Source: an uncultured Acidimicrobiales bacterium
Lineage (GTDB): Bacteria > Actinomycetota > Acidimicrobiia > Acidimicrobiales > Aldehydirespiratoraceae
Assembly: GCA_958296055.1 (NCBI GenBank)
Contig: CATQHS010000001.1
Location: 1,396,277-1,460,276, forward strand
Length of the DNA: 64,000 nt
Direction: 5' to 3'
The position numbers were made by a program, and so were the translations under genes. Of this stretch, positions 761 to 33,342 are shown piece by piece (position 1 is the stretch's first letter; each line of letters begins with the position of its first letter). The notes under the pieces were generated by a model, which worked only from the letters and a program-made list of their open reading frames with translations, did not search any database and was not told where the DNA came from.

Positions 761-1624
761 TCAGCGGGTGAACAGGAGCTGGAACTCGATGATCCCGTGG
801 TCCTCGACCGAGACGACGATCGGGGCCGAGGGGGCCTGCACGCCGTAGTCGTCGAAGCGCACCTCGGTCGAGCCGACCACCACGATCACATTGTCGACGA
901 GCTGGGCGTCGAGGGCGAAGACGGCCGGGTTGGTGACCCCTTTGATGGTCAGGTCGCCCGCCGCCGCCAGCGAGAAGGCGGCACCGTCGGCCGCGCCGGC
1001 GGGCAGGGCCACGGGCTCGGTCAGGACGAAGGTTGCGGTCGGGAACTGGTTGGTGGCCAGGGCCTGGCGGGTGCGCCCGTCCCGCAAGGGCCGGTCGGTT
1101 TCGATGGTGGACATGTCCACCGTGATCTCGGCTGCCTCCAGGCCCCCGGCGCCGAGCTGGATGAACCCGGACACCTCCCCGGTGCGGCCCACCGCGGTGA
1201 CCTCTCCGATGGTCAGCTCTTCGTCGACCCGGAAACCGGCGAAGCTGCCGGTGGCCTGCTCGTAGTCGAAGTCGCCAATGGAAGTGTCAACGGTCCAGGC
1301 GCCAGCGACGCCCGAGGCGACATCACCCGACCCGGCGGCATCGTCGGCGCCGCCGCCGTCGGCACCCGCAGCCGGCTCGGCGGTCTCTTCGGCGGCCCCA
1401 GACGGCTCCGCGGCTTCGTCCGGGGCCGCGGCAGGCTCGACAACACCCTCAGCCTCGGTGTCGGCCACCGCGGCCGGCGACGCCGTGGTGGTCGTGGCCA
1501 GTCCGGCCACCGCCGCGGAGAGATCGACCTCGGCCGGCTCGTCGCCAGCGAAGACCACCCACCACACCAAAGCCGCCACGACCACCGCGACCACCGCAGC
1601 GCCGAGCCAGAGAATCCTCTTCAT
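761..1624 (-). CDS. YceI-like family secreted/membrane-anchored protein
   Basis: 287-aa ORF with an N-terminal TM/signal segment (MKRILWLGAAVVAVVVAALVWWVV) and an Ala/Glu/Pro-rich linker. The C-terminal domain shows the YceI pattern (WTVD..S.I.F.V..........V.G......G.I........ITVDMSTIETD...RD..L). Confidence 0.75.
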   Translation of the reverse strand: MKRILWLGAAVVAVVVAALVWWVVFAGDEPAEVDLSAAVAGLATTTTASPAAVADTEAEGVVEPAAAPDEAAEPSGAAEETAEPAAGADGGGADDAAGSGDVASGVAGAWTVDTSIGDFDYEQATGSFAGFRVDEELTIGEVTAVGRTGEVSGFIQLGAGGLEAAEITVDMSTIETDRPLRDGRTRQALATNQFPTATFVLTEPVALPAGAADGAAFSLAAAGDLTIKGVTNPAVFALDAQLVDNVIVVVGSTEVRFDDYGVQAPSAPIVVSVEDHGIIEFQLLFTR

Positions 1625-1646
1625 CGGTCCGCGGCCGCTTCCGCGC

Positions 1647-1982
1647 TCAGCCGGGCCCGGCCGCGGCTATGAGCTCTTCGTCGCTGGGGATCTCCACCCC
1701 CGGGCCGTAGTAGGTGTGGAGGCCGGCGATGACCGCGCCCAAGTCCGCGCCGTCGGAGGAGTCCAGCTCCGCCGTCACCATCGAGGCGTACACGTGGACG
1801 GCTTTGACCTTGCCGGTGGCGATCAGCCTCCGGGCCAGCTCGTCCACCGGCCGGTTCCCGGCGATCTCGTCGCCGGCCCGGTAGCGCTCGTGGCCCATCC
1901 CGGTGAGGCTCCGGTTGAGCTCGAAGCGGACGATCCCCGGCCTCGGCGAGGTGGTGCGCAAGAAGGTGACGGGCTGGCCCAC
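1647..1982 (-). CDS. NifU N-terminal (Nfu_N)-like domain protein
   Basis: 111-aa ORF. Its size and pattern (SPRPGIVRFELNR...PVDELARRLIATGKVKAVHVYASMVTAEL) resemble small actinobacterial Nfu_N-domain proteins. The assignment is from recall only. Confidence 0.45.
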   Translation of the reverse strand: MGQPVTFLRTTSPRPGIVRFELNRSLTGMGHERYRAGDEIAGNRPVDELARRLIATGKVKAVHVYASMVTAELDSSDGADLGAVIAGLHTYYGPGVEIPSDEELIAAAGPG

Positions 1983-2042
1983 AGACCTGGCATCGTACCC
2001 GGCCGCCGACCGGGGGCGCCCCTACCCGGACGGCGGCGGCCG

Positions 2043-2750
2043 CTACAGATCGAGGCTCTGCTGGGCGGCGTCGATGGGGTCGGTCAGCCGGGGGACGCCG
2101 GTCCAGCGCAGCCCGTCCATGAACACCCAGCGCCGCCGGTGAATGGCGCTGGGGCCCCACGCGGCCAGCGCGGCCCGGTGCCGCGGGCAGGGGTAGCCCT
2201 TGTTGGACTCGAACCAGTAGCCGGGGTAACAGTGGGCCGCGGTCCGCATGATCCGGTCCCGGGTCACCTTGGCCACGATGGAGGCGGCGGCGATAGACAG
2301 GCTGATCGAGTCGCCTCGCACCATGGTGGTGGTGTTCCCGCCCCCCACGAAATCCCACGAGCCGTCGACCAGCACGTGACCGACGGCGAGGCCGAGGCCG
2401 TCGATGGCCCGCCGGGCGGCCAGGCGCTGGGCCGCGGCCATGCCCAGCTCGTTGCACTCGGCCACCTCGGCGTGGCCGACGGAGACGGCCCGGGCCCAGC
2501 GCCGGATGCGGTCGTGCATCGCCTCCCGCTCGTCGGGGGTGAGCATCTTGGAGTCCCGGACCTTGTAGATGCGGGCCACGGGGTCGGCCACCACCGCCCC
2601 CACCGTCAGGGGCCCGGCCCAGGACCCCCGGCCCACCTCGTCCACCCCGACCACCACGTCGGCCCCGGCCTCCCACAGGGCCCGCTCGGCCCGCAGCCCG
2701 GGCGCTTTGCCCTTGAGAGCCCGCCTCAGAGTCGGCGCCCTAGCCGTCAC
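2043..2750 (-). CDS. rnhB: Ribonuclease HII
   Basis: Motifs VVGVDEVGRGSWAGPLTVGAVV, VRDSKMLTPDERE, LVDGS and SIAAASIVAKVTRD are present. I place the start at GTG 2750 (VTARAPTLRRAL..). The longer ORF to 2921 adds a non-homologous extension. Confidence 0.9.
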   Translation of the reverse strand: MTARAPTLRRALKGKAPGLRAERALWEAGADVVVGVDEVGRGSWAGPLTVGAVVADPVARIYKVRDSKMLTPDEREAMHDRIRRWARAVSVGHAEVAECNELGMAAAQRLAARRAIDGLGLAVGHVLVDGSWDFVGGGNTTTMVRGDSISLSIAAASIVAKVTRDRIMRTAAHCYPGYWFESNKGYPCPRHRAALAAWGPSAIHRRRWVFMDGLRWTGVPRLTDPIDAAQQSLDL

Positions 2751-2825
2751 GGGCCACTGGCTACCACACTCCCCGCCCGCCAGGCCCGAATCGGCCAGTA
2801 TGAGGACGAGGAAGAGGAGGTCGAG

Positions 2826-3803
2826 ATGGAACTCGGTCGATTGGAGAGAGTCGAAGTGCGCACGGTATGGGAGAACGAAGCCCGAGATTTCACGCCGTGG
2901 CTGCTCGATCACCACGATCACCTAGCCGAGGCCCTGGGCATCGACCTTGAGATCGAGCAGTCAGAGCACCCGGTCGGCGATTTCTCCCTTGATCTCATCG
3001 GACGCGATCTGACCAACGACGCTGTCCTCATCGTTGAGAACCAGCTCGGGGGGACTGATCACAACCACCTCGGCCAGATTCTCACGTACGCGGCCGGTAC
3101 CGGCGCCTCGAGCATCGTATGGATAGCGACCTCGTTCCGAGAGGAGCATCGCCAAGCCATCGACTGGCTCAACGAGCAGACCCGGGAAAATGTCCGCTTC
3201 TTTGGAATAGAGCTTCAGGTGGTGCGGATCGGTGCATCACTCCCGGCACCCCTCTTCAAGCTGGTGGCGCAGCCCAACGACTTGCAGAAGCAGGTCCGCT
3301 CAGCAACCCGGCCAGATAGAACCGAAAGGGAAATCCAGAATCACAATTTCTGGACCAGATACTTAGAGCGATTGAGAGAAGAACATCCAGATTGGTCCAA
3401 AGGGGGGACACCCTCAATAAAGAACTGGATGGAGTTCAAATCACCGATCAACTGGATGAATTTAAAATTACCGATCAACTGGATAAATTTAAGAAGACCG
3501 GGTATCCGTCTGAATTTAACCCACAGGCGACTTCGACATGAGATCTATATCGATACCCTCGACAAGACTAGCAACGATAGTATCTTCGAGCATCTGTTAC
3601 AGCAGCGAAAACTATTCGAGACCGAGTATGGGCGACCGCTCCAGTGGGAGCCATTGCCCGATGCCAGAGCATGCCGAATCGCCGAATATCGGGAAGATGC
3701 GGATGTGGCCTCTGAAGGTCGGTACGACGAATTCATCGACTGGTTCTTCGACGCCGGCGTGCGGCTGCGCCGGGCCCTGTCAGCCGTAGTGCGGATGGCG
3801 TAA
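2826..3803 (+). CDS. DUF4268-type protein with an N-terminal restriction-endonuclease-like (NucS-like) module
   Basis: ATG 2826 follows GAGGAGG by 6 nt. The N-terminal part reads WENEARDFTPWL..HPVGDFSLDLIGRD..AVLIVENQLGGTDHNHLGQILTYAAG..IVWIA. The C-terminal half is typical of DUF4268 (FW..Y...L.......W). G+C drops in the 3' half. Confidence 0.7.
   Translation: MELGRLERVEVRTVWENEARDFTPWLLDHHDHLAEALGIDLEIEQSEHPVGDFSLDLIGRDLTNDAVLIVENQLGGTDHNHLGQILTYAAGTGASSIVWIATSFREEHRQAIDWLNEQTRENVRFFGIELQVVRIGASLPAPLFKLVAQPNDLQKQVRSATRPDRTEREIQNHNFWTRYLERLREEHPDWSKGGTPSIKNWMEFKSPINWMNLKLPINWINLRRPGIRLNLTHRRLRHEIYIDTLDKTSNDSIFEHLLQQRKLFETEYGRPLQWEPLPDARACRIAEYREDADVASEGRYDEFIDWFFDAGVRLRRALSAVVRMA
3443..3496 (+). 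repeat. 27-bp in-frame tandem duplication (2 copies) inside the DUF4268 gene
   Basis: accgatcaactggatgaatttaaaatt is followed directly by accgatcaactggataaatttaagaag. The two copies encode PINWMNLKL and PINWINLRR. Confidence 0.9.
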
Positions 3804-16589: not shown

Positions 16590-17756
16590 TCACCGGCGCA
16601 ACACGTACGGCCGCTCGTTCGGCTCCAGTGAGACCCTGGCGCTCGCAGCGTCGAAGCCGCGGCGGTCGAGCTGCTCGCCGTCCTGGGAGACGGTGAAGGA
16701 CTCGCCCACCCAATCGGCCGGCAGGTCGAACAGGATGGTCAGTGGCTGGTCGAATATGGCGTTGTCCAGCCCGTCGGAGACGGTTATCTCGATTCGGTCT
16801 GGGTCGTCGATTTTGTTTTCACCGAAGGTTTCAACTTTGATGGAAGCTTTTTCTCTTTCTCGAGCGTAGAGGGTTATATCGTTCATGGGCGCTGTCCAGA
16901 AATCTCGCCTGGCTACCGACTGGATGTCCTTTTGGAACTCTCCCCAGTCATACCACCCGAATCCCTTGGGGTTACCGATATTATGGTACACTAATATCAC
17001 CCATGCCGTCCGGTTCAGCGCCTCGTCCAAGACGGGCTCCAGTTCGTTGTTGTCGTTCACGCACTCTCGGCAAGGATCGAATGAATCGGTGGAGAACTCG
17101 ATGCTTTGCATCGGGACCGCCATAAGTGCAAACCAGTCATCAGGGGCCTTCGAGTCGCCAGGAATGTTGTAGAAACGATCAGTTTCGTAAGTCTGAAGCC
17201 TGCCGCTCAGAAAGCCCGACGCCTCCAGGGCCCGTTGCGTCTCTTCGTCCTTGCCGGCGTTTCTGGGGTAAGAGTAGGCCACTGGCTTCAGGCCCCAGTC
17301 TTTCATGGTCTCATAGTTGGTTCGAAACGATTCGAGCGCATCGTCATAGGACAGCAAATCGTGGTCAATGTGGTCATGCCCATGACCGAAATAGCCGAAT
17401 CCCTTGGGGACCAACTCTTCAAACAAATAGACAAGCCGGGCATCATTGGCCCCGCTATAGAGGGGCTGACCCCAATAGGTGCTTCCGGTCACCAGCTCAT
17501 AGCCAAGAACGAGGCCCTGTTCTATCATATAATCATTCACATCCGGCTCACCCCATGGAAATAAAGGAATATCATAGGTTATGGACACGGCGGCGGTACG
17601 GTTGTCATGCCACTTGGCCACCGAGGCATTCAACGGACCCGAAGTCGCGGCCGGAGCGTCAGCAACGTCCGGTGAGGCCGATCGGCAGGCTGCGGCCATG
17701 AATACGCACCCCAGGCCCGCAGACAATGCGAACACCATGGCCGCCGTCCTAGACAT
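16590..17756 (-). CDS. Lipoprotein, polysaccharide-deacetylase (NodB)-like
   Basis: The lipobox is VFMAAAC. NodB-like elements are AVSITYD, GHGHDHIDH and AYSYPRNAG. The gene is visibly lower in G+C. Its ATG at 17756 overlaps the 3' end of bioD. Confidence 0.5.
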   Translation of the reverse strand: MSRTAAMVFALSAGLGCVFMAAACRSASPDVADAPAATSGPLNASVAKWHDNRTAAVSITYDIPLFPWGEPDVNDYMIEQGLVLGYELVTGSTYWGQPLYSGANDARLVYLFEELVPKGFGYFGHGHDHIDHDLLSYDDALESFRTNYETMKDWGLKPVAYSYPRNAGKDEETQRALEASGFLSGRLQTYETDRFYNIPGDSKAPDDWFALMAVPMQSIEFSTDSFDPCRECVNDNNELEPVLDEALNRTAWVILVYHNIGNPKGFGWYDWGEFQKDIQSVARRDFWTAPMNDITLYAREREKASIKVETFGENKIDDPDRIEITVSDGLDNAIFDQPLTILFDLPADWVGESFTVSQDGEQLDRRGFDAASARVSLEPNERPYVLRR

Positions 17757-24420: not shown

Positions 24421-24696
24421 CCGGGATCGGGATCGGACTTGCCGGTCTGTCCACCCGGGCCGAGTCCAACGGCGACATCTGGGTCGGGCCCGGCCCGGTC
24501 GACAGGGTCATCGACGAGGCCCGGGCCCGGGCGACTCGCTGGTCCGGGACCGGCTCATGGGGCTGTGGTGCCGGGAGCGGGCGCTGTAGATGACGGCCCC
24601 TGCGAGGGGCATCGGCGAACGGGGGCTCGGCCTGCCCCGGGAGCCCGACCCCTACAAGGGCACCCCAAAGGCCGACATCCCCCGCTGAGTGCGCCC

Positions 24697-25872
24697 ATGA
24701 ACAGCTCCAAGCGGAGCCCAGCCCTATTGCTGGCTGTAGGCATTTTCCTGGCGCTTGTGGTTCGCTACCGTTTTATATTTTTCGAGACTAATGACTATTC
24801 TAATTACCTTTCTACTTGGTATAATTTTATTAAAAATCGTGATAACATAGAGGCTTTACGTGACCCATTTTCCAACCACAACATGCCGTATTTATACTTG
24901 TTAACGATGAGTGTGGTTCTCTTTCCTGTTCGCGAGGCCTACACCGTCATCGTCATAAAAGTTATATCTATTATCTTTGACATTATGATGGCCTCTTTCG
25001 CTTATGAATGCGTGCGCATGAAATACCATGAATCTAAGATGATACCGATTATGGCCGCGCTGGCAACGCTCTTTGCACCTACAGTCATACTCAACAGCGC
25101 CGCGTGGGCCCAGTCAGACGCCATATATACCACCTTCCTTGTAGCCTGCCTTTACGCCCTGCTTGCCCGACGCCAAGCATGGGCCTTCATCGCCTTTGGA
25201 TTAGCCTTCTCCTTCAAGCTGCAAGCCCTCTTTCTGGCACCACTATTCCTGTGGCTGTTAATCAAAAAGACAGTTAACTGGCGCTGCTTCTTTTTGAGCC
25301 CTCTAGTTTACCTCATCACTCTCATCCCAGCCTGGCTCATCGGTAGACCCTTAGGCGATATGTTGTTAATCTATATCAGACAGTCCCAACAATACGAATT
25401 CCTCACTCATCAGGCTCCTAATCTGTACCAATGGATCCCCAACGCATACTATGATTTGTATCCACTAGGTGTAGTATTCACGGTGATAGTAGTGTTAATT
25501 ATAGCTTGGCTTCTATCTAAGAGCCGAGTGAAGGTGACCGAAGACTTGTTGGTTCATCTAGCGACTTTCTCTGTCCTCCTCTTGCCCTATATTCTGCCCA
25601 AAATGCATGATCGATACTTCTTCTCCGCTGATGTAATCGCCATTATCTTTGCCTTCTATTTCCCAAAATACTGGTATATACCTATAGGTATTGGTCTAGC
25701 GTCTCTCAATAGTTACCTCGCATTTCTGTACGGAGTGTTGATCGTTCCACTGGAGTTGATGGCTATCATTCCGGCGACGCTCATTGCTGTTCTAGGGTGG
25801 CAACTCCTGCGGGACTTCAACACCCCCCCGGCAAACACTCTGGTGCAATTTCACAGCTCAGAGCGCCCGTAA
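24697..25872 (+). CDS. GT-C fold integral-membrane glycosyltransferase (PIG-V/DUF2029-like mannosyltransferase family)
   Basis: ATG 24697 marks the point where composition switches abruptly to AT-rich. There are about 11 hydrophobic segments, an acidic first loop (FFETNDYSNY), and AWAQSDAIYTTFLVACLYALLARRQAWAFIAFGLAFSFKLQALFLAPLF. Confidence 0.7.
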   Translation: MNSSKRSPALLLAVGIFLALVVRYRFIFFETNDYSNYLSTWYNFIKNRDNIEALRDPFSNHNMPYLYLLTMSVVLFPVREAYTVIVIKVISIIFDIMMASFAYECVRMKYHESKMIPIMAALATLFAPTVILNSAAWAQSDAIYTTFLVACLYALLARRQAWAFIAFGLAFSFKLQALFLAPLFLWLLIKKTVNWRCFFLSPLVYLITLIPAWLIGRPLGDMLLIYIRQSQQYEFLTHQAPNLYQWIPNAYYDLYPLGVVFTVIVVLIIAWLLSKSRVKVTEDLLVHLATFSVLLLPYILPKMHDRYFFSADVIAIIFAFYFPKYWYIPIGIGLASLNSYLAFLYGVLIVPLELMAIIPATLIAVLGWQLLRDFNTPPANTLVQFHSSERP

Positions 25873-30430: not shown

Positions 30431-30695
30431 CGGCCCTCAGGGCCGCGAGGATGGCCGAGGGCAGCTCCTGGCCCAGCTCGATCTCGAGCGGTTCGCCCAA
30501 GTCGTCCAGCCCGGCGGTCGCCGATTCCAGCCCGTTGGCGGCGCGGAGTTTCTCCAGCGGGGTGGCGTCGGGCATCGGGCTCAACAACGCCACCGGCCTG
30601 CCCCGGTCGGTCACCTGGATCGTCTCGCCGGCCTCAACCCTTCTCAGAAACTCGCTCGCTCGCTGACGGAGCTCGCGCACACCAATCGAGTCCAT
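30420..30695 (-). CDS. Phd/YefM-family antitoxin (module 1)
   Basis: MDSIGVRELRQRASEFLRRVEAGETIQVTDRGRPVALLSP is a canonical Phd/YefM N-terminal domain. Confidence 0.88.
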   Translation of the reverse strand: MDSIGVRELRQRASEFLRRVEAGETIQVTDRGRPVALLSPMPDATPLEKLRAANGLESATAGLDDLGEPLEIELGQELPSAILAALRADER

Positions 30696-30714
30696 GTGCT
30701 ACTTATAGCACATG
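30693..30714. promoter_or_regulatory. Perfect 9-bp inverted repeat (4-nt spacer) overlapping the -10 box and the antitoxin ATG; putative TA operator and leaderless promoter
   Basis: The sequence is catgtgcta-ctta-tagcacatg. On the minus strand it reads TATAAG-N6-ATG, where the ATG is the antitoxin start at 30695. Confidence 0.55.
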
Positions 30715-30746
30715 GATTCATGTGGGCGGCGCGCCTTGTCCGGGCG

Positions 30747-31403
30747 TCAAGCGGGCCCATTCCGTCGGGCTGCTGCTTCAAGGACGGCTTCGTAGAAAAC
30801 TTGGAAGCTACGAGAGGTCGACCGATTCGGATCTATTCGTTCACCGATCTTGCGGGCGGCCTCACGTTTGCGCAACCCTCCGGGAAACTCCGATCTCATT
30901 ACTTTTTCAAAGGCTTCCCAGGTACCTTCTTTGATGGCATCAGGATCTCGAAACTTCGGGCGTTTTGATGGATCTGCAGGTGCGTTCTCGTAAGCAGCAC
31001 GAACCGCCTCCCAGTCACCGAAGTACCATGCCTCCAGCTCTTCAATCACGATACGATTGACAAGCTGCCAATTGTCGCTAGTAGAGGTACGAGTGATGAG
31101 ACCAGCCTCCTTGGCGATGCCTTCAAGCTCACCTTTTAGAACATGGCAATCTTCGGAGTCCCGATCCAAAACAACGAAGAGCCGGTGCCCAGAGAGTAAG
31201 GATCGTTTAAGGCCGTACAAGCGCTCAAGCAACTTCTTCTTAAGATCGCGTTTACCTGAGAACGCTATAATATCAAATGTGGCATCTTCAGGCAAATAAC
31301 GAGGGAGTAGGCCGTTTAGGAAGTCTTTCATTGACGGTTCTTCTACCAAGAATCTCAAATGCCGCATTGTGTCCGATGTGACACCTCTTGTCGCTGGCGT
31401 CAT
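30747..31403 (-). CDS. DUF4276-like protein with Toprim-type acidic motifs (putative nuclease partner of the upstream ATPase)
   Basis: Motifs are LRFLVEEPSMKDFLNGLL (conserved Glu), LFVVLDRDSEDC (DxD-type) and VIEELEAWYFGDWEAV. ATG 31403 overlaps the ATPase stop (ATGA). The alternative start ATG 31367 gives MRHLRFLVEE. G+C is low. Confidence 0.7.
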   Translation of the reverse strand: MTPATRGVTSDTMRHLRFLVEEPSMKDFLNGLLPRYLPEDATFDIIAFSGKRDLKKKLLERLYGLKRSLLSGHRLFVVLDRDSEDCHVLKGELEGIAKEAGLITRTSTSDNWQLVNRIVIEELEAWYFGDWEAVRAAYENAPADPSKRPKFRDPDAIKEGTWEAFEKVMRSEFPGGLRKREAARKIGERIDPNRSTSRSFQVFYEAVLEAAARRNGPA

Positions 31404-32620
31404 AGGCGCGTCAACGGGTCTCCGACACCAAACCATCCTTCGGTCCACAGGTTGCCGAGCAGACCACCCGCCGTCATCAGGTCTGAAATGCCCTCAATAT
31501 CAGAGGCTCGGCGCACGTTAGTGTAACCGTTGTCATCGCGCCACAGGATGCGCACCTCTTCGGGCCTGAGGCCGTCGATAAAGAACGGCGAGTGAGTGGT
31601 TACCAACAGTTGCGTGGAGCCCAAAACGGAGCGGCACTCCTCCGCTAGAACTGGCAGCAGGCTAGGGTGCAGGAAGTTTTCAGGTTCCTCAATACCTATG
31701 AAAGGATATGAGTGAGATCCGTGTAGAAGAATGAGGTAGGCAAGCATTTTAAGAGTACCATCTGACGCATACTTAGCCAGAATTGGTTCGTCAAATGGAG
31801 CGTCAACAAACTGCAAAAGCAGGCGTCCATCCTTCATCGGTTCGGCCATCACATCGGAGATGAGTGGTACCCGCTTGGCTAGTTTTTCGATTATACCACC
31901 GAGAAGAAGTGGCTCTCTCTCTCGAAGATATTGAACAACGTTGGCCAGATTGTCACCCGCGCGCGTAAGCTTCTCGTTCGGCCCGCTCTCAGGCTGATCG
32001 CGACCTGCTTCCGCAGCCAGATAGGAAGTATGCCAGCCTGTGATGAAGTCACGAAGCCCTGCCACGCGCGGATGAGTGGAGAATTGGCCCAAGGCATTAA
32101 CAGCCAAAAGATCAGGGGACTGAAGCTTGAAGGGAACGCGTTCACCCATCTCGTCTGGTAGTTCGCCGCTGATAGCTTTTCCGCTGCCCCCATGAAATTC
32201 AAGAAATCCAAACGGTGCCCCCCATTGCTTCCGTCTCCAGCCCAGCCATTCATGCACTACCACCGGTCTGCCCCTGATCTCGTCGAGTTCAAGGCGATAC
32301 GTGATCCGAGGACTTACAGTGCTATCTGGCTCTGGAGGTCGCTCGCGGTACTTGATCTTAATCTCTATGGGGCCAGACGAGCCTCGCGATTTGATCTCTC
32401 GCACCCGTCCCCGCCTGTCCCAAGCGCGGCGCAGGTCATCTTCAAAACACTCGGACAAGAACGCGAACACGTCAAAGACAGTGGACTTGCCGCTGCCATT
32501 CGGGCCGACCAGAACGGTCAGCGGAGTCAGCTCTTTGAGATCAATTCTCTTTAGCGCCCGGAAATTGCGGACGCTGAGCGACTCGATCCGAGGTGGACCT
32601 TCGGGGTTCGGCCTCGCCAT
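31400..32620 (-). CDS. ABC-type (AAA_21/OLD-like) ATPase
   Basis: The start is ATG 32620. Walker A is VGPNGSGKST, the signature-like motif is ASDGTLKML, Walker B is FIGIEEPENFLHP, and the H-loop is LLVTTHSP. The gene is 406 aa and visibly lower in G+C than the flanks. Confidence 0.85.
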   Translation of the reverse strand: MARPNPEGPPRIESLSVRNFRALKRIDLKELTPLTVLVGPNGSGKSTVFDVFAFLSECFEDDLRRAWDRRGRVREIKSRGSSGPIEIKIKYRERPPEPDSTVSPRITYRLELDEIRGRPVVVHEWLGWRRKQWGAPFGFLEFHGGSGKAISGELPDEMGERVPFKLQSPDLLAVNALGQFSTHPRVAGLRDFITGWHTSYLAAEAGRDQPESGPNEKLTRAGDNLANVVQYLREREPLLLGGIIEKLAKRVPLISDVMAEPMKDGRLLLQFVDAPFDEPILAKYASDGTLKMLAYLILLHGSHSYPFIGIEEPENFLHPSLLPVLAEECRSVLGSTQLLVTTHSPFFIDGLRPEEVRILWRDDNGYTNVRRASDIEGISDLMTAGGLLGNLWTEGWFGVGDPLTRL

Positions 32621-32658
32621 TTCGGTCAGCGTACTGACGTTTCGAACCCGGCTTGACG

Positions 32659-33342
32659 CTACTCGCGGCTGCCGATCTCGGTGTTGAGCCAGGCGACGAG
32701 CTGCTGCTGGTTGCGGGTCTGCACCAAGACGTCGCCGGGGCCGCTGAAGTGGAACACGAACCCCTCGCCGGACTTGGCCGACTGGATGGAGCGGCCCTCC
32801 ACCGCCCGGCGCAGCTCGTAGCTCACGGTGTCGACGAAGGCCAGCATGTGGTTGGTGTCCACCACCACGGTCTCGCCCGCGGCCAGCGACATGACCTCGA
32901 TGGCGCCGTACGACGCGGCCAGGGCCTTGCCCACCCCGGTGGCGTGGATCATGAACCCGCCCTCGCCGCCGATCAGCGACTTGAACCCGCCCCACTTGGT
33001 GTCGATCTCCACCGACGCGTCCGAGGCCAGCCAGTTGCCCCGCTCGATGATCCAAGACCTCGAGCCGTCCAGCTCCAGGACGCAGACGTCGCCGGGCAGC
33101 TTGGCCGCCACGTCCACCCATCCCCCGCCAGCCGGGGCGGTGTAGGTGGAGACGAACAGGGACTCGCCCCCCAGCACGCTGCGCTTCAGTCCCTTGAAGA
33201 GACCGCCCTCCATCTTGGCCTCGAGATGCATGCCGTAGGAGTGGGCCATCATGGCCCCGGCCTCCACCTTCACCTGCTGGCCCCCGTTCAGGGTGCATCT
33301 GGCCACCCCGAAGCTGGGTGCATGTCTGATGTCAACTTCCAT
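32659..33342 (-). CDS. TIGR00266/AIM24 (DUF124) family protein
   Basis: 227 aa with an AIM24-like pattern (..GAMMAHS....LEAKMEGG..KGLKRSVLGGESLF...Y.A....V..A...PG.....L.). Confidence 0.7.
   Translation of the reverse strand: MEVDIRHAPSFGVARCTLNGGQQVKVEAGAMMAHSYGMHLEAKMEGGLFKGLKRSVLGGESLFVSTYTAPAGGGWVDVAAKLPGDVCVLELDGSRSWIIERGNWLASDASVEIDTKWGGFKSLIGGEGGFMIHATGVGKALAASYGAIEVMSLAAGETVVVDTNHMLAFVDTVSYELRRAVEGRSIQSAKSGEGFVFHFSGPGDVLVQTRNQQQLVAWLNTEIGSRE

Follow-up and report, generated by a model that had tools for sequence, protein, structure and literature searches.

How is a pair of genes for an ABC-type ATPase and a small DUF4276 protein, lying in a sharply bounded islet of foreign composition in an actinobacterial chromosome, to be understood: as a defence system in its own right, as an accessory to another system, or as something else? 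The pair is located in a 64,000-nucleotide stretch of the genome of an uncultured Acidimicrobiales bacterium (contig CATQHS010000001.1, positions 1,396,277 to 1,460,276), referred to here as the window. An earlier note, made from the letters of the window, had read the two genes as a horizontally acquired conflict module of the OLD/PARIS/AbiL class, with ATPase and Toprim nuclease split between them. The results of the current analysis uphold this reading and narrow it. By sequence, the gene pair is a member of the already catalogued candidate anti-phage system HEC-01, and the locus is probably an HEC-01-type defence cassette of two genes that is complete in itself and was acquired horizontally. 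The alleles of the pair differ strongly between strains of one species, and their divergence is concentrated in one segment of the ATPase.

Assignment of the two proteins to HEC-01

Both proteins give full-length matches to the HEC-01 models of PADLOC, all other defence families scoring far lower. The ATPase matches HEC-01A (PDLC04182; E = 1.2e-146, 486.9 bits, residues 10-401 against profile positions 2-404 of 406) and the DUF4276 protein matches HEC-01B (PDLC04202; E = 5e-69, 230.4 bits, residues 15-210 against profile positions 2-200 of 204). Payne and colleagues introduced HEC-01, Hma-embedded candidate 01 of PADLOC-DB v2, as an ABC ATPase with a TOPRIM-like partner, and aligned HEC-01B with the metal site of the OLD protein of Burkholderia pseudomallei (BpOLD) (bioRxiv 10.1101/2024.01.29.577857). 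The adjacent, co-oriented genes that HEC-01 requires are present in the window, on the minus strand and with an ATGA stop/start overlap; the embedding in Hma or another defence system, which guided the discovery of HEC-01 and is not a detection rule, is absent. In Pfam, the ATPase matches AAA_21 (6e-28) and AAA_15 (1.9e-21). The small protein matches DUF4276 (PF14103; 3.7e-26, 93.0 bits against a gathering threshold of 30.2, profile positions 1-190 of 192), which was its sole Pfam family at E<=0.01, with no match to RloB; the NCBIfam scan gave no match for it. The features of the pair are collected in Table 1, and all of the motifs that the earlier note had quoted for the two proteins are present and are invariant or nearly so across the homologues.

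Table 1. Features of the HEC-01-type gene pair and its islet; positions are those of the window.
Feature	Position	Strand	Remarks
ABC-type (AAA_21/AAA_15) ATPase gene	31400..32620	-	406 residues; ATG at 32620, TGA stop at 31400-31402; matches HEC-01A
DUF4276/Toprim-like putative nuclease gene	30747..31403	-	218 residues from the ATGA start, 206 residues if the start is at 31367; matches HEC-01B
ATGA stop/start overlap	31400..31403	-	TGA of the ATPase gene with in-frame ATG of the DUF4276 gene; from sequence
Low-G+C islet holding exactly the two genes	30700..32660		G+C about 0.50-0.58, against 0.68-0.74 on both flanks
Mosaic ATPase segment, codons ~73-172	32103..32402	-	predicted beta-rich insert after the P-loop helix; candidate specificity region; from strain comparison
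Walker A / P-loop GPNGSGKST, residues 39-47	32480..32506	-	G39, N41 and S43-T47 invariant in 34 homologues
ABC signature-like motif SDGTLK, residues 286-291	31748..31765	-	invariant in 34 homologues
Walker B and catalytic Glu, IGIEEPE, residues 308-314	31679..31699	-	E311-E314 invariant in 34 homologues
H-loop TTHSP, residues 341-345	31586..31600	-	invariant in 34 homologues
Toprim-type Glu pair E9, E10 (206-residue form)	31338..31343	-	right after strand beta-1 (E2-8); invariant in 33 homologues
DxD motif D68-R69-D70	31158..31166	-	end of strand beta-3 (E62-68); D68 and R69 invariant, D70 at least 90% conserved
Second acidic cluster EELE (E109, E110, E112)	31032..31043	-	after strand beta-4; within invariant EELEAWYFxDW

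The ATPase sequence carries every hallmark of an ABC-type (SMC/Rad50/OLD-like) ATPase, i.e. Walker A, the signature motif, Walker B with the catalytic Glu, and the H-loop, and its C-terminal tail, LWxEGxFGVGDPL, is likewise invariant in the 34 homologues. The AF2 model (predicted local distance difference test score, pLDDT, 81.7) places strands at residues 85-165, and ATPases of the window's clade share a small extra insertion near residues 95-105. The model finds its top match in the Protein Data Bank (PDB) in the OLD protein of Thermus scotoductus (6p74, 1.6e-13), together with many PtuA structures (1e-13 to 1e-10) and the Smc4 head; by sequence, the best match to a solved structure is PtuA of Septu/retron I-A (8ee4, 2.6e-13).

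The small protein is predicted to adopt a Toprim topology, with an invariant Glu and the DxD motif at the positions of Toprim catalytic residues, a similarity that is modest but specific. The AF2 model of its 206-residue form (pLDDT 89.4, predicted template modelling score 0.88) comprises four beta-alpha units, with a beta-alpha-beta-alpha-beta-alpha-beta core (E2-8, H11-23, E29-35, H39-56, E62-68, H74-87, E102-108) followed by a helical C-terminal part, in agreement with the Toprim superfamily's three-layer alpha/beta core of four parallel strands. In Foldseek searches of the PDB, the top two matches, clearly set apart from the remainder, were PH0156 (2p62) and the C-terminal Toprim-containing region of BpOLD (6nk8; probability 0.99, template modelling (TM) scores 0.49/0.51), and among viral models there was one good match, to an RloB-like protein (probability 1.0, TM 0.50). 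DUF4276 has already been placed in the Toprim superfamily (PMC12065111). At 50% identity, the family falls into about 1,970 clusters, nearly all of them stand-alone proteins of about 200 residues.

The HEC-01 system type in PADLOC, the Toprim nature of the small protein and two phenotype tests with conflicting outcomes were thus known before this analysis. The earlier note had been aware of no experimental characterisation of the DUF4276 variant; in fact, two published studies have tested HEC-01 for a phenotype (bioRxiv 10.1101/2024.01.29.577857 and PMC12881386).

As an observation on the catalogue itself, the labels of two further PADLOC-DB models appear to be swapped: PDLC04144, named HEC-01B, matches the ATPase (5.9e-107), and PDLC04143, named HEC-01A, matches the DUF4276 protein (9.6e-34).

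The two genes form one unit

One genome per species was scanned, amounting to 185,579 species representatives, and the genomic context of the 80 closest loci was retrieved. The family was found at more than 489 loci, in many bacterial phyla and in Methanosarcina, with a patchy distribution. An ATPase homologue (54-78% identity) is located immediately upstream of the DUF4276 gene, on the same strand, in all 80 other species. Across 75 loci, the identity between any two of the ATPases correlates with that between the DUF4276 proteins of the same loci (r = 0.71), a value reached by none of 999 Mantel permutations. The ATPase and DUF4276 genes are therefore one unit, obligately paired and co-evolving. 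No homologue of AIM24, of the antitoxin or of the PIN toxin, the genes that adjoin the pair in the window, was found near the pair at any of these 80 loci, and AIM24 and VapBC consequently lie outside the module; either of them as a third component was rejected (0 of 80 loci). The earlier note had left it unclear whether the AIM24 gene belonged to the module: its native composition and its distance of exactly 38 nucleotides from AIM24 stop to ATPase start hold, and membership does not.

The ATGA overlap, which was borne out by the sequence along with the common strand of the two genes, suggests translational coupling. Of the 80 related loci, 49 would permit an NTGA overlap, which is also the called gene structure in the sister species (L083) and on a Meiothermus plasmid; three more would permit a 1-nucleotide overlap, and 27 have gaps of 3-21 nucleotides. 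The start of the DUF4276 gene is given as a candidate because in most homologues the protein starts with the counterpart of MRHLRF (31367) and the source genome's own call for the gene is 229 residues long. The closest actinobacterial homologues have in common a 12-residue extension beginning MT. Exact-sequence look-ups of the window ATPase and of the 218-, 206- and 229-residue forms of the DUF4276 protein returned no match, and the genomic context of relatives was reached via the AIM24 protein.

Foreign composition and a variable insertion site

The drop in composition that the earlier note had described between about 30720 and 32650 is real and sharp (Table 1), the profile standing at 0.50-0.55 from about 30.7 to 32.6 kb. 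The guanine-plus-cytosine (G+C) content of the pair is 0.54, compared with 0.70 for the window, and its G+C at third codon positions is 0.49-0.58, compared with 0.95 for AIM24. Across 71 loci, the pair spans 0.48-0.68 G+C and the host flanks 0.41-0.73, the pair lying below its flanks in high-G+C hosts and above them in Methanosarcina. The G+C content of the pair is nearly independent of that of its host.

The insertion site was compared among relatives that share the upstream synteny or possess a close AIM24 orthologue. The HEC-01 pair lies downstream of AIM24 in the window, in L081, in L082 (a conspecific genome) and in L083. The same site is empty in L086 (6684-6710), in which AIM24 is followed directly by acyl-CoA dehydrogenase genes, and in L085 (6846-8048) it holds a gene for an AAA_14/DUF4143 ATPase. 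L083 can be aligned with the window at the nucleotide level from 40471 down to 30764, where the homology breaks off at the end of the DUF4276 gene. The sister species keeps the pair and lacks VapBC; the pair has stayed at the AIM24 site across species-level divergence. The site downstream of AIM24 is variable and looks like a small integration hot spot without visible mobility genes. The pair was acquired horizontally, as its foreign composition and the variability of its insertion site in relatives attest.

Recognisable borders are lacking from the cassette. No direct repeats bracket the islet, and no conserved border motif was found across 76-78 loci, in which the inter-locus matches reflected related genomes or conserved hsdS 3' ends. 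A 12-nucleotide inverted repeat at the islet ends (30744-30755 and 32648-32659) was rejected as an attachment site or terminal repeat, as 20 comparable pairs, this one included, occur in 2.7 kb at chance level. Phage or plasmid carriage as the typical context was also rejected: the family is rare on plasmids (eight records) and phages (four weak matches), and there is no PHROG family for the small protein.

Mosaic alleles among strains

Between the window and the conspecific genome L082 (ATPase gene at L082:6725-7945), the flanks are 97-100% identical and the flanking genes have a synonymous divergence (dS) of 0.03-0.04, whereas dS is 0.64 for the ATPase gene (85% amino-acid identity; ratio of nonsynonymous to synonymous divergence, dN/dS, 0.14) and 0.17 for the DUF4276 gene (91% amino-acid identity; dN/dS 0.28). 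The divergence of the ATPase gene peaks at codons ~51-200, the region of the predicted beta-rich insert, with a dS of 1.5-1.9 for codons 51-150. Over the mosaic segment (Table 1), nucleotide identity of the window with the conspecific L082 is 0.69-0.74, versus 0.79-0.83 with the sister species L083. In addition, L081 and L082 carry the same ATPase with a different DUF4276 gene. Simple positive selection as the cause of this divergence was rejected, with dS 5-17 times that of the flanks and dN/dS below 0.3, and these same values indicate allele replacement or mosaic recombination of functional alleles rather than decay. Judged by dN/dS (0.14-0.28), the pair is under purifying selection. The variable pores of AriA, the ATPase of PARIS, have been proposed as a trigger-recognition surface, and by analogy the mosaic insert of the window ATPase is a candidate for such a surface.

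Comparison with related ATPase-nuclease systems

The window pair has the same two families in the same order as the published HEC-01, an ABC ATPase followed by a DUF4276/TOPRIM-like protein, and shares with it the predicted beta-rich Insert 1 of the ATPase and the alignment to the BpOLD Toprim metal site. It differs in that no Hma or other defence system surrounds it and its neighbours are AIM24 and a VapBC-like pair, in its origin from a high-G+C Acidimicrobiia-like genome, and in carrying the clade insertion near residues 95-105.

Several other systems combine a related ATPase with a nuclease. PARIS resembles the window pair in that an ABC ATPase (AriA) and a Toprim effector (AriB) are split, and AriA models match the window ATPase partially (3e-28 and 8e-25). 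In PARIS, the ATPase scaffold senses a trigger and frees the nuclease, and tRNA is cleaved; this mechanism is the best available working model for the window pair. However, AriB is a DUF4435 effector whereas the effector in the window is a DUF4276 protein of about 205 residues without an AriB match in PADLOC, the window ATPase is far closer to HEC-01A, the solved AriA structures fall outside its top 50 fold matches, and PARIS is often borne by phages or satellites whereas the window family is nearly absent from phage records. Membership of PARIS was rejected, as the small protein matches only DUF4276 in Pfam and the HEC-01 models in PADLOC. The OLD proteins and GajA of Gabija share the Glu and DxD chemistry, and OLD proteins head the fold matches of the ATPase (6p74) and account for one of the top two of the small protein (BpOLD, 6nk8). 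In OLD and GajA, however, ATPase and Toprim are fused in one chain, unlike the two open reading frames (ORFs) of the window with a stop codon between them, and there is no GajB-like helicase neighbour at the window locus. The single polypeptide that defines the OLD family (classes 1-2) is not found here, and membership was rejected.

MADS contains a module, MADS3-4, listed as ABC ATPase plus TOPRIM (PMC11464382). Mad3-Mad4 likewise combine an AAA_15/21 ATPase with a DUF4276-family protein, and both are genetically needed for full MADS defence. In the window, however, the NCBIfam antiphage_MADS3 model scores 106 bits against a cut-off of 420, PADLOC mad3 reaches 7e-18, mad4 has no match, and none of the remaining MADS genes, among them the mandatory mad6-8, is nearby, the flanks being metabolic or toxin-antitoxin genes; membership of MADS was rejected on these grounds. 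In Septu and in the PtuA-PtuB pair of retron I-A, an ATPase regulates a separate small nuclease, and PtuA is among the top fold matches of the window ATPase. PtuB, however, is an HNH nuclease, as opposed to the Toprim-like protein of the window, and the ATPase matches PtuA at 1e-15 in PADLOC and at 47 bits against a cut-off of 500 in NCBIfam. Septu (PtuAB) was rejected because the partner is DUF4276 and not an HNH PtuB. AbiL was rejected too: the AbiLi model matches the window ATPase (1.1e-22), more than 120 orders of magnitude more weakly than HEC-01A does, and the small protein has no AbiLii match in PADLOC. The pairs of AAA_21 and RloB that are linked to Type I restriction-modification (R-M) resemble the window pair in having a small partner of the Toprim superfamily, and relatives of the window pair recurrently lie between hsdS and hsdR.

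Proposed mechanism and competing explanations

We propose that the ABC ATPase would oligomerise and act as both sensor and regulator, keeping the small Toprim-fold protein inactive. An infection cue, which might be foreign nucleic acid, a phage protein (e.g. an anti-restriction factor) or a shift in nucleotide pools, would alter the state of the ATPase, and the metal-dependent Toprim nuclease, with its predicted Glu and DxD site, would then be free to cleave its substrate. This might be DNA of the phage or of the host, on the pattern of OLD and Gabija, or tRNA, on that of PARIS, and phage replication would be blocked or the infection aborted. Complex formation, trigger, substrate and phenotype are in this model suggested by analogy with OLD, Gabija, PARIS and Septu.

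A bolder form of this proposal, which we offer tentatively and would not expect to hold as a whole, is that HEC-01 may work by itself as an immune cassette of sensor and effector, its specificity residing in the beta-rich insert of the ATPase. Homologous recombination within populations would shuffle this insert between alleles and generate a population-level repertoire of trigger specificities, as with the variable pores of AriA. The embedding of related pairs between hsdS and hsdR could then reflect the guarding of Type I R-M against anti-restriction proteins, by release of a Toprim nuclease of a new subfamily (DUF4276).

A role in defence is favoured by the related pairs that lie between hsdS and hsdR or beside other defence genes, by the protection published for one HEC-01 (PMC12881386) and by the weaker MADS defence of mad3 and mad4 deletions. 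A number of observations weigh against the reading of the locus as a defence cassette. The HEC-01 of Payne and colleagues protected Escherichia coli from none of the phages tried (bioRxiv 10.1101/2024.01.29.577857). In a later study, E. coli B carrying a cold-seep HEC-01, cloned alone, was reported to be protected from one or more of the phages T7, T5 and T4; the accessible portion of that study gives for HEC-01 neither a magnitude nor mutant controls (PMC12881386). The fold similarity of the DUF4276 protein to known structures is modest (TM about 0.5, Foldseek E 2e-3 to 6e-3), and a sequence search of the PDB with the DUF4276 profile returned nothing meaningful (best E 0.32). A scan for promoters and terminators yielded one promoter-like and two terminator-like sites, none of them above shuffle expectation or sensibly placed. 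Finally, about 85% of the 80 related loci, and the window locus too, lie among housekeeping genes without a defence neighbour; of what the earlier note had proposed to look for across genomes, the conservation of the pair was found without exception, and association with defence genes in a minority only.

The main rival is that the pair needs a partner modification system, i.e. that it is an accessory nuclease module of the kind of Mad3-Mad4 and the R-M-embedded pairs, and that the solo copy in the window is an orphan, either idle or helped by an unlinked methyltransferase or R-M system. We judge this unlikely. In MADS, mad5 can be deleted only together with mad2 or mad3, and deletions of mad3 and mad4 weaken defence. 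About 10-15% of the related copies are embedded in Type I R-M operons: a gene for HsdS directly precedes the pair in 6 of 74 loci and one for HsdR directly follows it in 3 of 76, and the pair lies between hsdS and hsdR in seven loci (L009, L019, L021, L037, L040, L041 and L075), several R-M-embedded relatives overlapping hsdR by 4 nucleotides. In another locus (L061), hsdR is directly downstream of the pair, with hsdM and hsdS further upstream. The Meiothermus taiwanensis plasmid pMtWR-220 (L084; record 47.8-59.7 kb) holds a Type I R-M operon with embedded cargo, in which hsdM, DUF262, hsdS, DUF4433, a macro-domain gene, the AAA ATPase, DUF4276 and hsdR follow one another on one strand, with 4-nucleotide overlaps at the junctions into DUF4276 and hsdR. 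Other defence neighbours were PifA, Cas6, QatA and some PDC candidates, once each. HEC-01 itself was discovered embedded in Hma, and alone gave no defence in the E. coli tests of Payne and colleagues. Against the need for a partner stand the majority of the 80 closest loci, which, like the window copy, are solo among housekeeping genes with all catalytic residues kept, the purifying selection indicated for the window alleles, the low MADS3 score with no mad4 match, and the protection that PMC12881386 reports for HEC-01 cloned alone.

Less probable still is that the pair is a selfish addiction or competition module, akin to a toxin-antitoxin system and kept by post-segregational killing or inter-element conflict rather than by phage protection. 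The host-independent composition and wide cross-phylum spread of the pair, its insertion at a variable site adjoining a toxin-antitoxin pair, the mosaic exchange of its alleles and the mention of a 'putative AbiEii toxin' in the Pfam label of AAA_21 would all suit such a module. However, mobility genes and conserved cassette borders were not found, plasmid and phage records of the pair are scarce, the pair has remained at its site across species-level divergence, and its architecture is that of a sensor-effector defence system and not of a labile antitoxin with a stable toxin.

We consider it very unlikely that the pair serves the cell in housekeeping DNA repair or recombination, as a RecF/SbcC/Rad50-like ATPase with a Toprim nuclease. 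The N-terminus of the ATPase does match the SMC_N, RecF, Rad50 and SbcC models, but weakly and in the P-loop region only (1e-3 to 1e-9, against 1e-146 for HEC-01A), and the patchy distribution of the family among species, its foreign G+C content, the empty site in close relatives and the replacement of alleles between conspecific strains speak against such a role. That the pair is what is left of a transferred cassette, in decay and no longer functional, is barely credible, as its unameliorated composition and the lack of a recognisable promoter or Shine-Dalgarno sequence upstream of the ATPase gene are set against two intact ORFs of full length relative to the family profiles, catalytic motifs kept throughout, dN/dS of 0.14-0.28 and retention in the sister species.

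The reading of the locus as a self-contained HEC-01-type defence cassette is thus the one that we retain, as a probable one.

Neighbouring genes and further islets

By Pfam, the neighbours of the pair in the window are AIM24 (1.4e-62), a Phd/YefM-type antitoxin and a PIN toxin. The earlier note had seen in the adjoining VapBC a small defence islet. This is not supported, because the composition of VapBC is native (0.69-0.72 G+C) and L083 lacks VapBC; nor was VapBC found beside the pair in any of the 80 species.

A perfect 11-nucleotide palindrome, TCCATGTGCTA-TAAG-TAGCACATGGA (30690-30715), overlaps the start codon of the Phd/YefM antitoxin and lies within a longer, 28-nucleotide imperfect inverted repeat (30674-30733). 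This palindrome is probably the operator through which the toxin-antitoxin pair regulates itself, and might double as a terminator hairpin for the ATPase/DUF4276 pair upstream.

In the AIM24 neighbourhood of another relative (L087, 1024-3778), two copies of a toxin-antitoxin pair with a FitA-like ribbon-helix-helix protein and a PIN protein flank an AAA_14/DUF4143 ATPase of the same type as that at the AIM24-downstream site of L085, adjoining an ISL3 transposase fragment.

The window contains other patches of low G+C. A second sharp islet (24650-25870; 0.40-0.51 G+C) encodes a 391-residue polytopic membrane protein without a Pfam match (24697-25869, plus strand) and lies inside a segment of about 23.8-30.7 kb with almost no nucleotide counterpart in L083. 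Two further patches may be foreign insertions: one at about 3000-3800, in the 3' part of an ORF (1278-3803) with a DUF4268 domain (1.3e-19), and one at 16590-17756 (minus strand), holding a 388-residue ORF without a Pfam match.

Implications for the HEC-01 family

For annotation, the two genes would be recorded as an HEC-01-type ATPase/Toprim candidate defence pair, with AIM24 and VapBC left out. The value to the field is incremental, HEC-01 being abundant in environmental genomes and its experimental record conflicting. To that record the locus adds a clean solo copy at a demonstrably variable chromosomal site, together with evidence for purifying selection. It also adds mosaic, deeply diverged alleles within one species, their divergence concentrated in one segment of the ATPase. 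This segment is a concrete candidate for a trigger-recognition surface, and would be a rational target for chimeras and mutagenesis.

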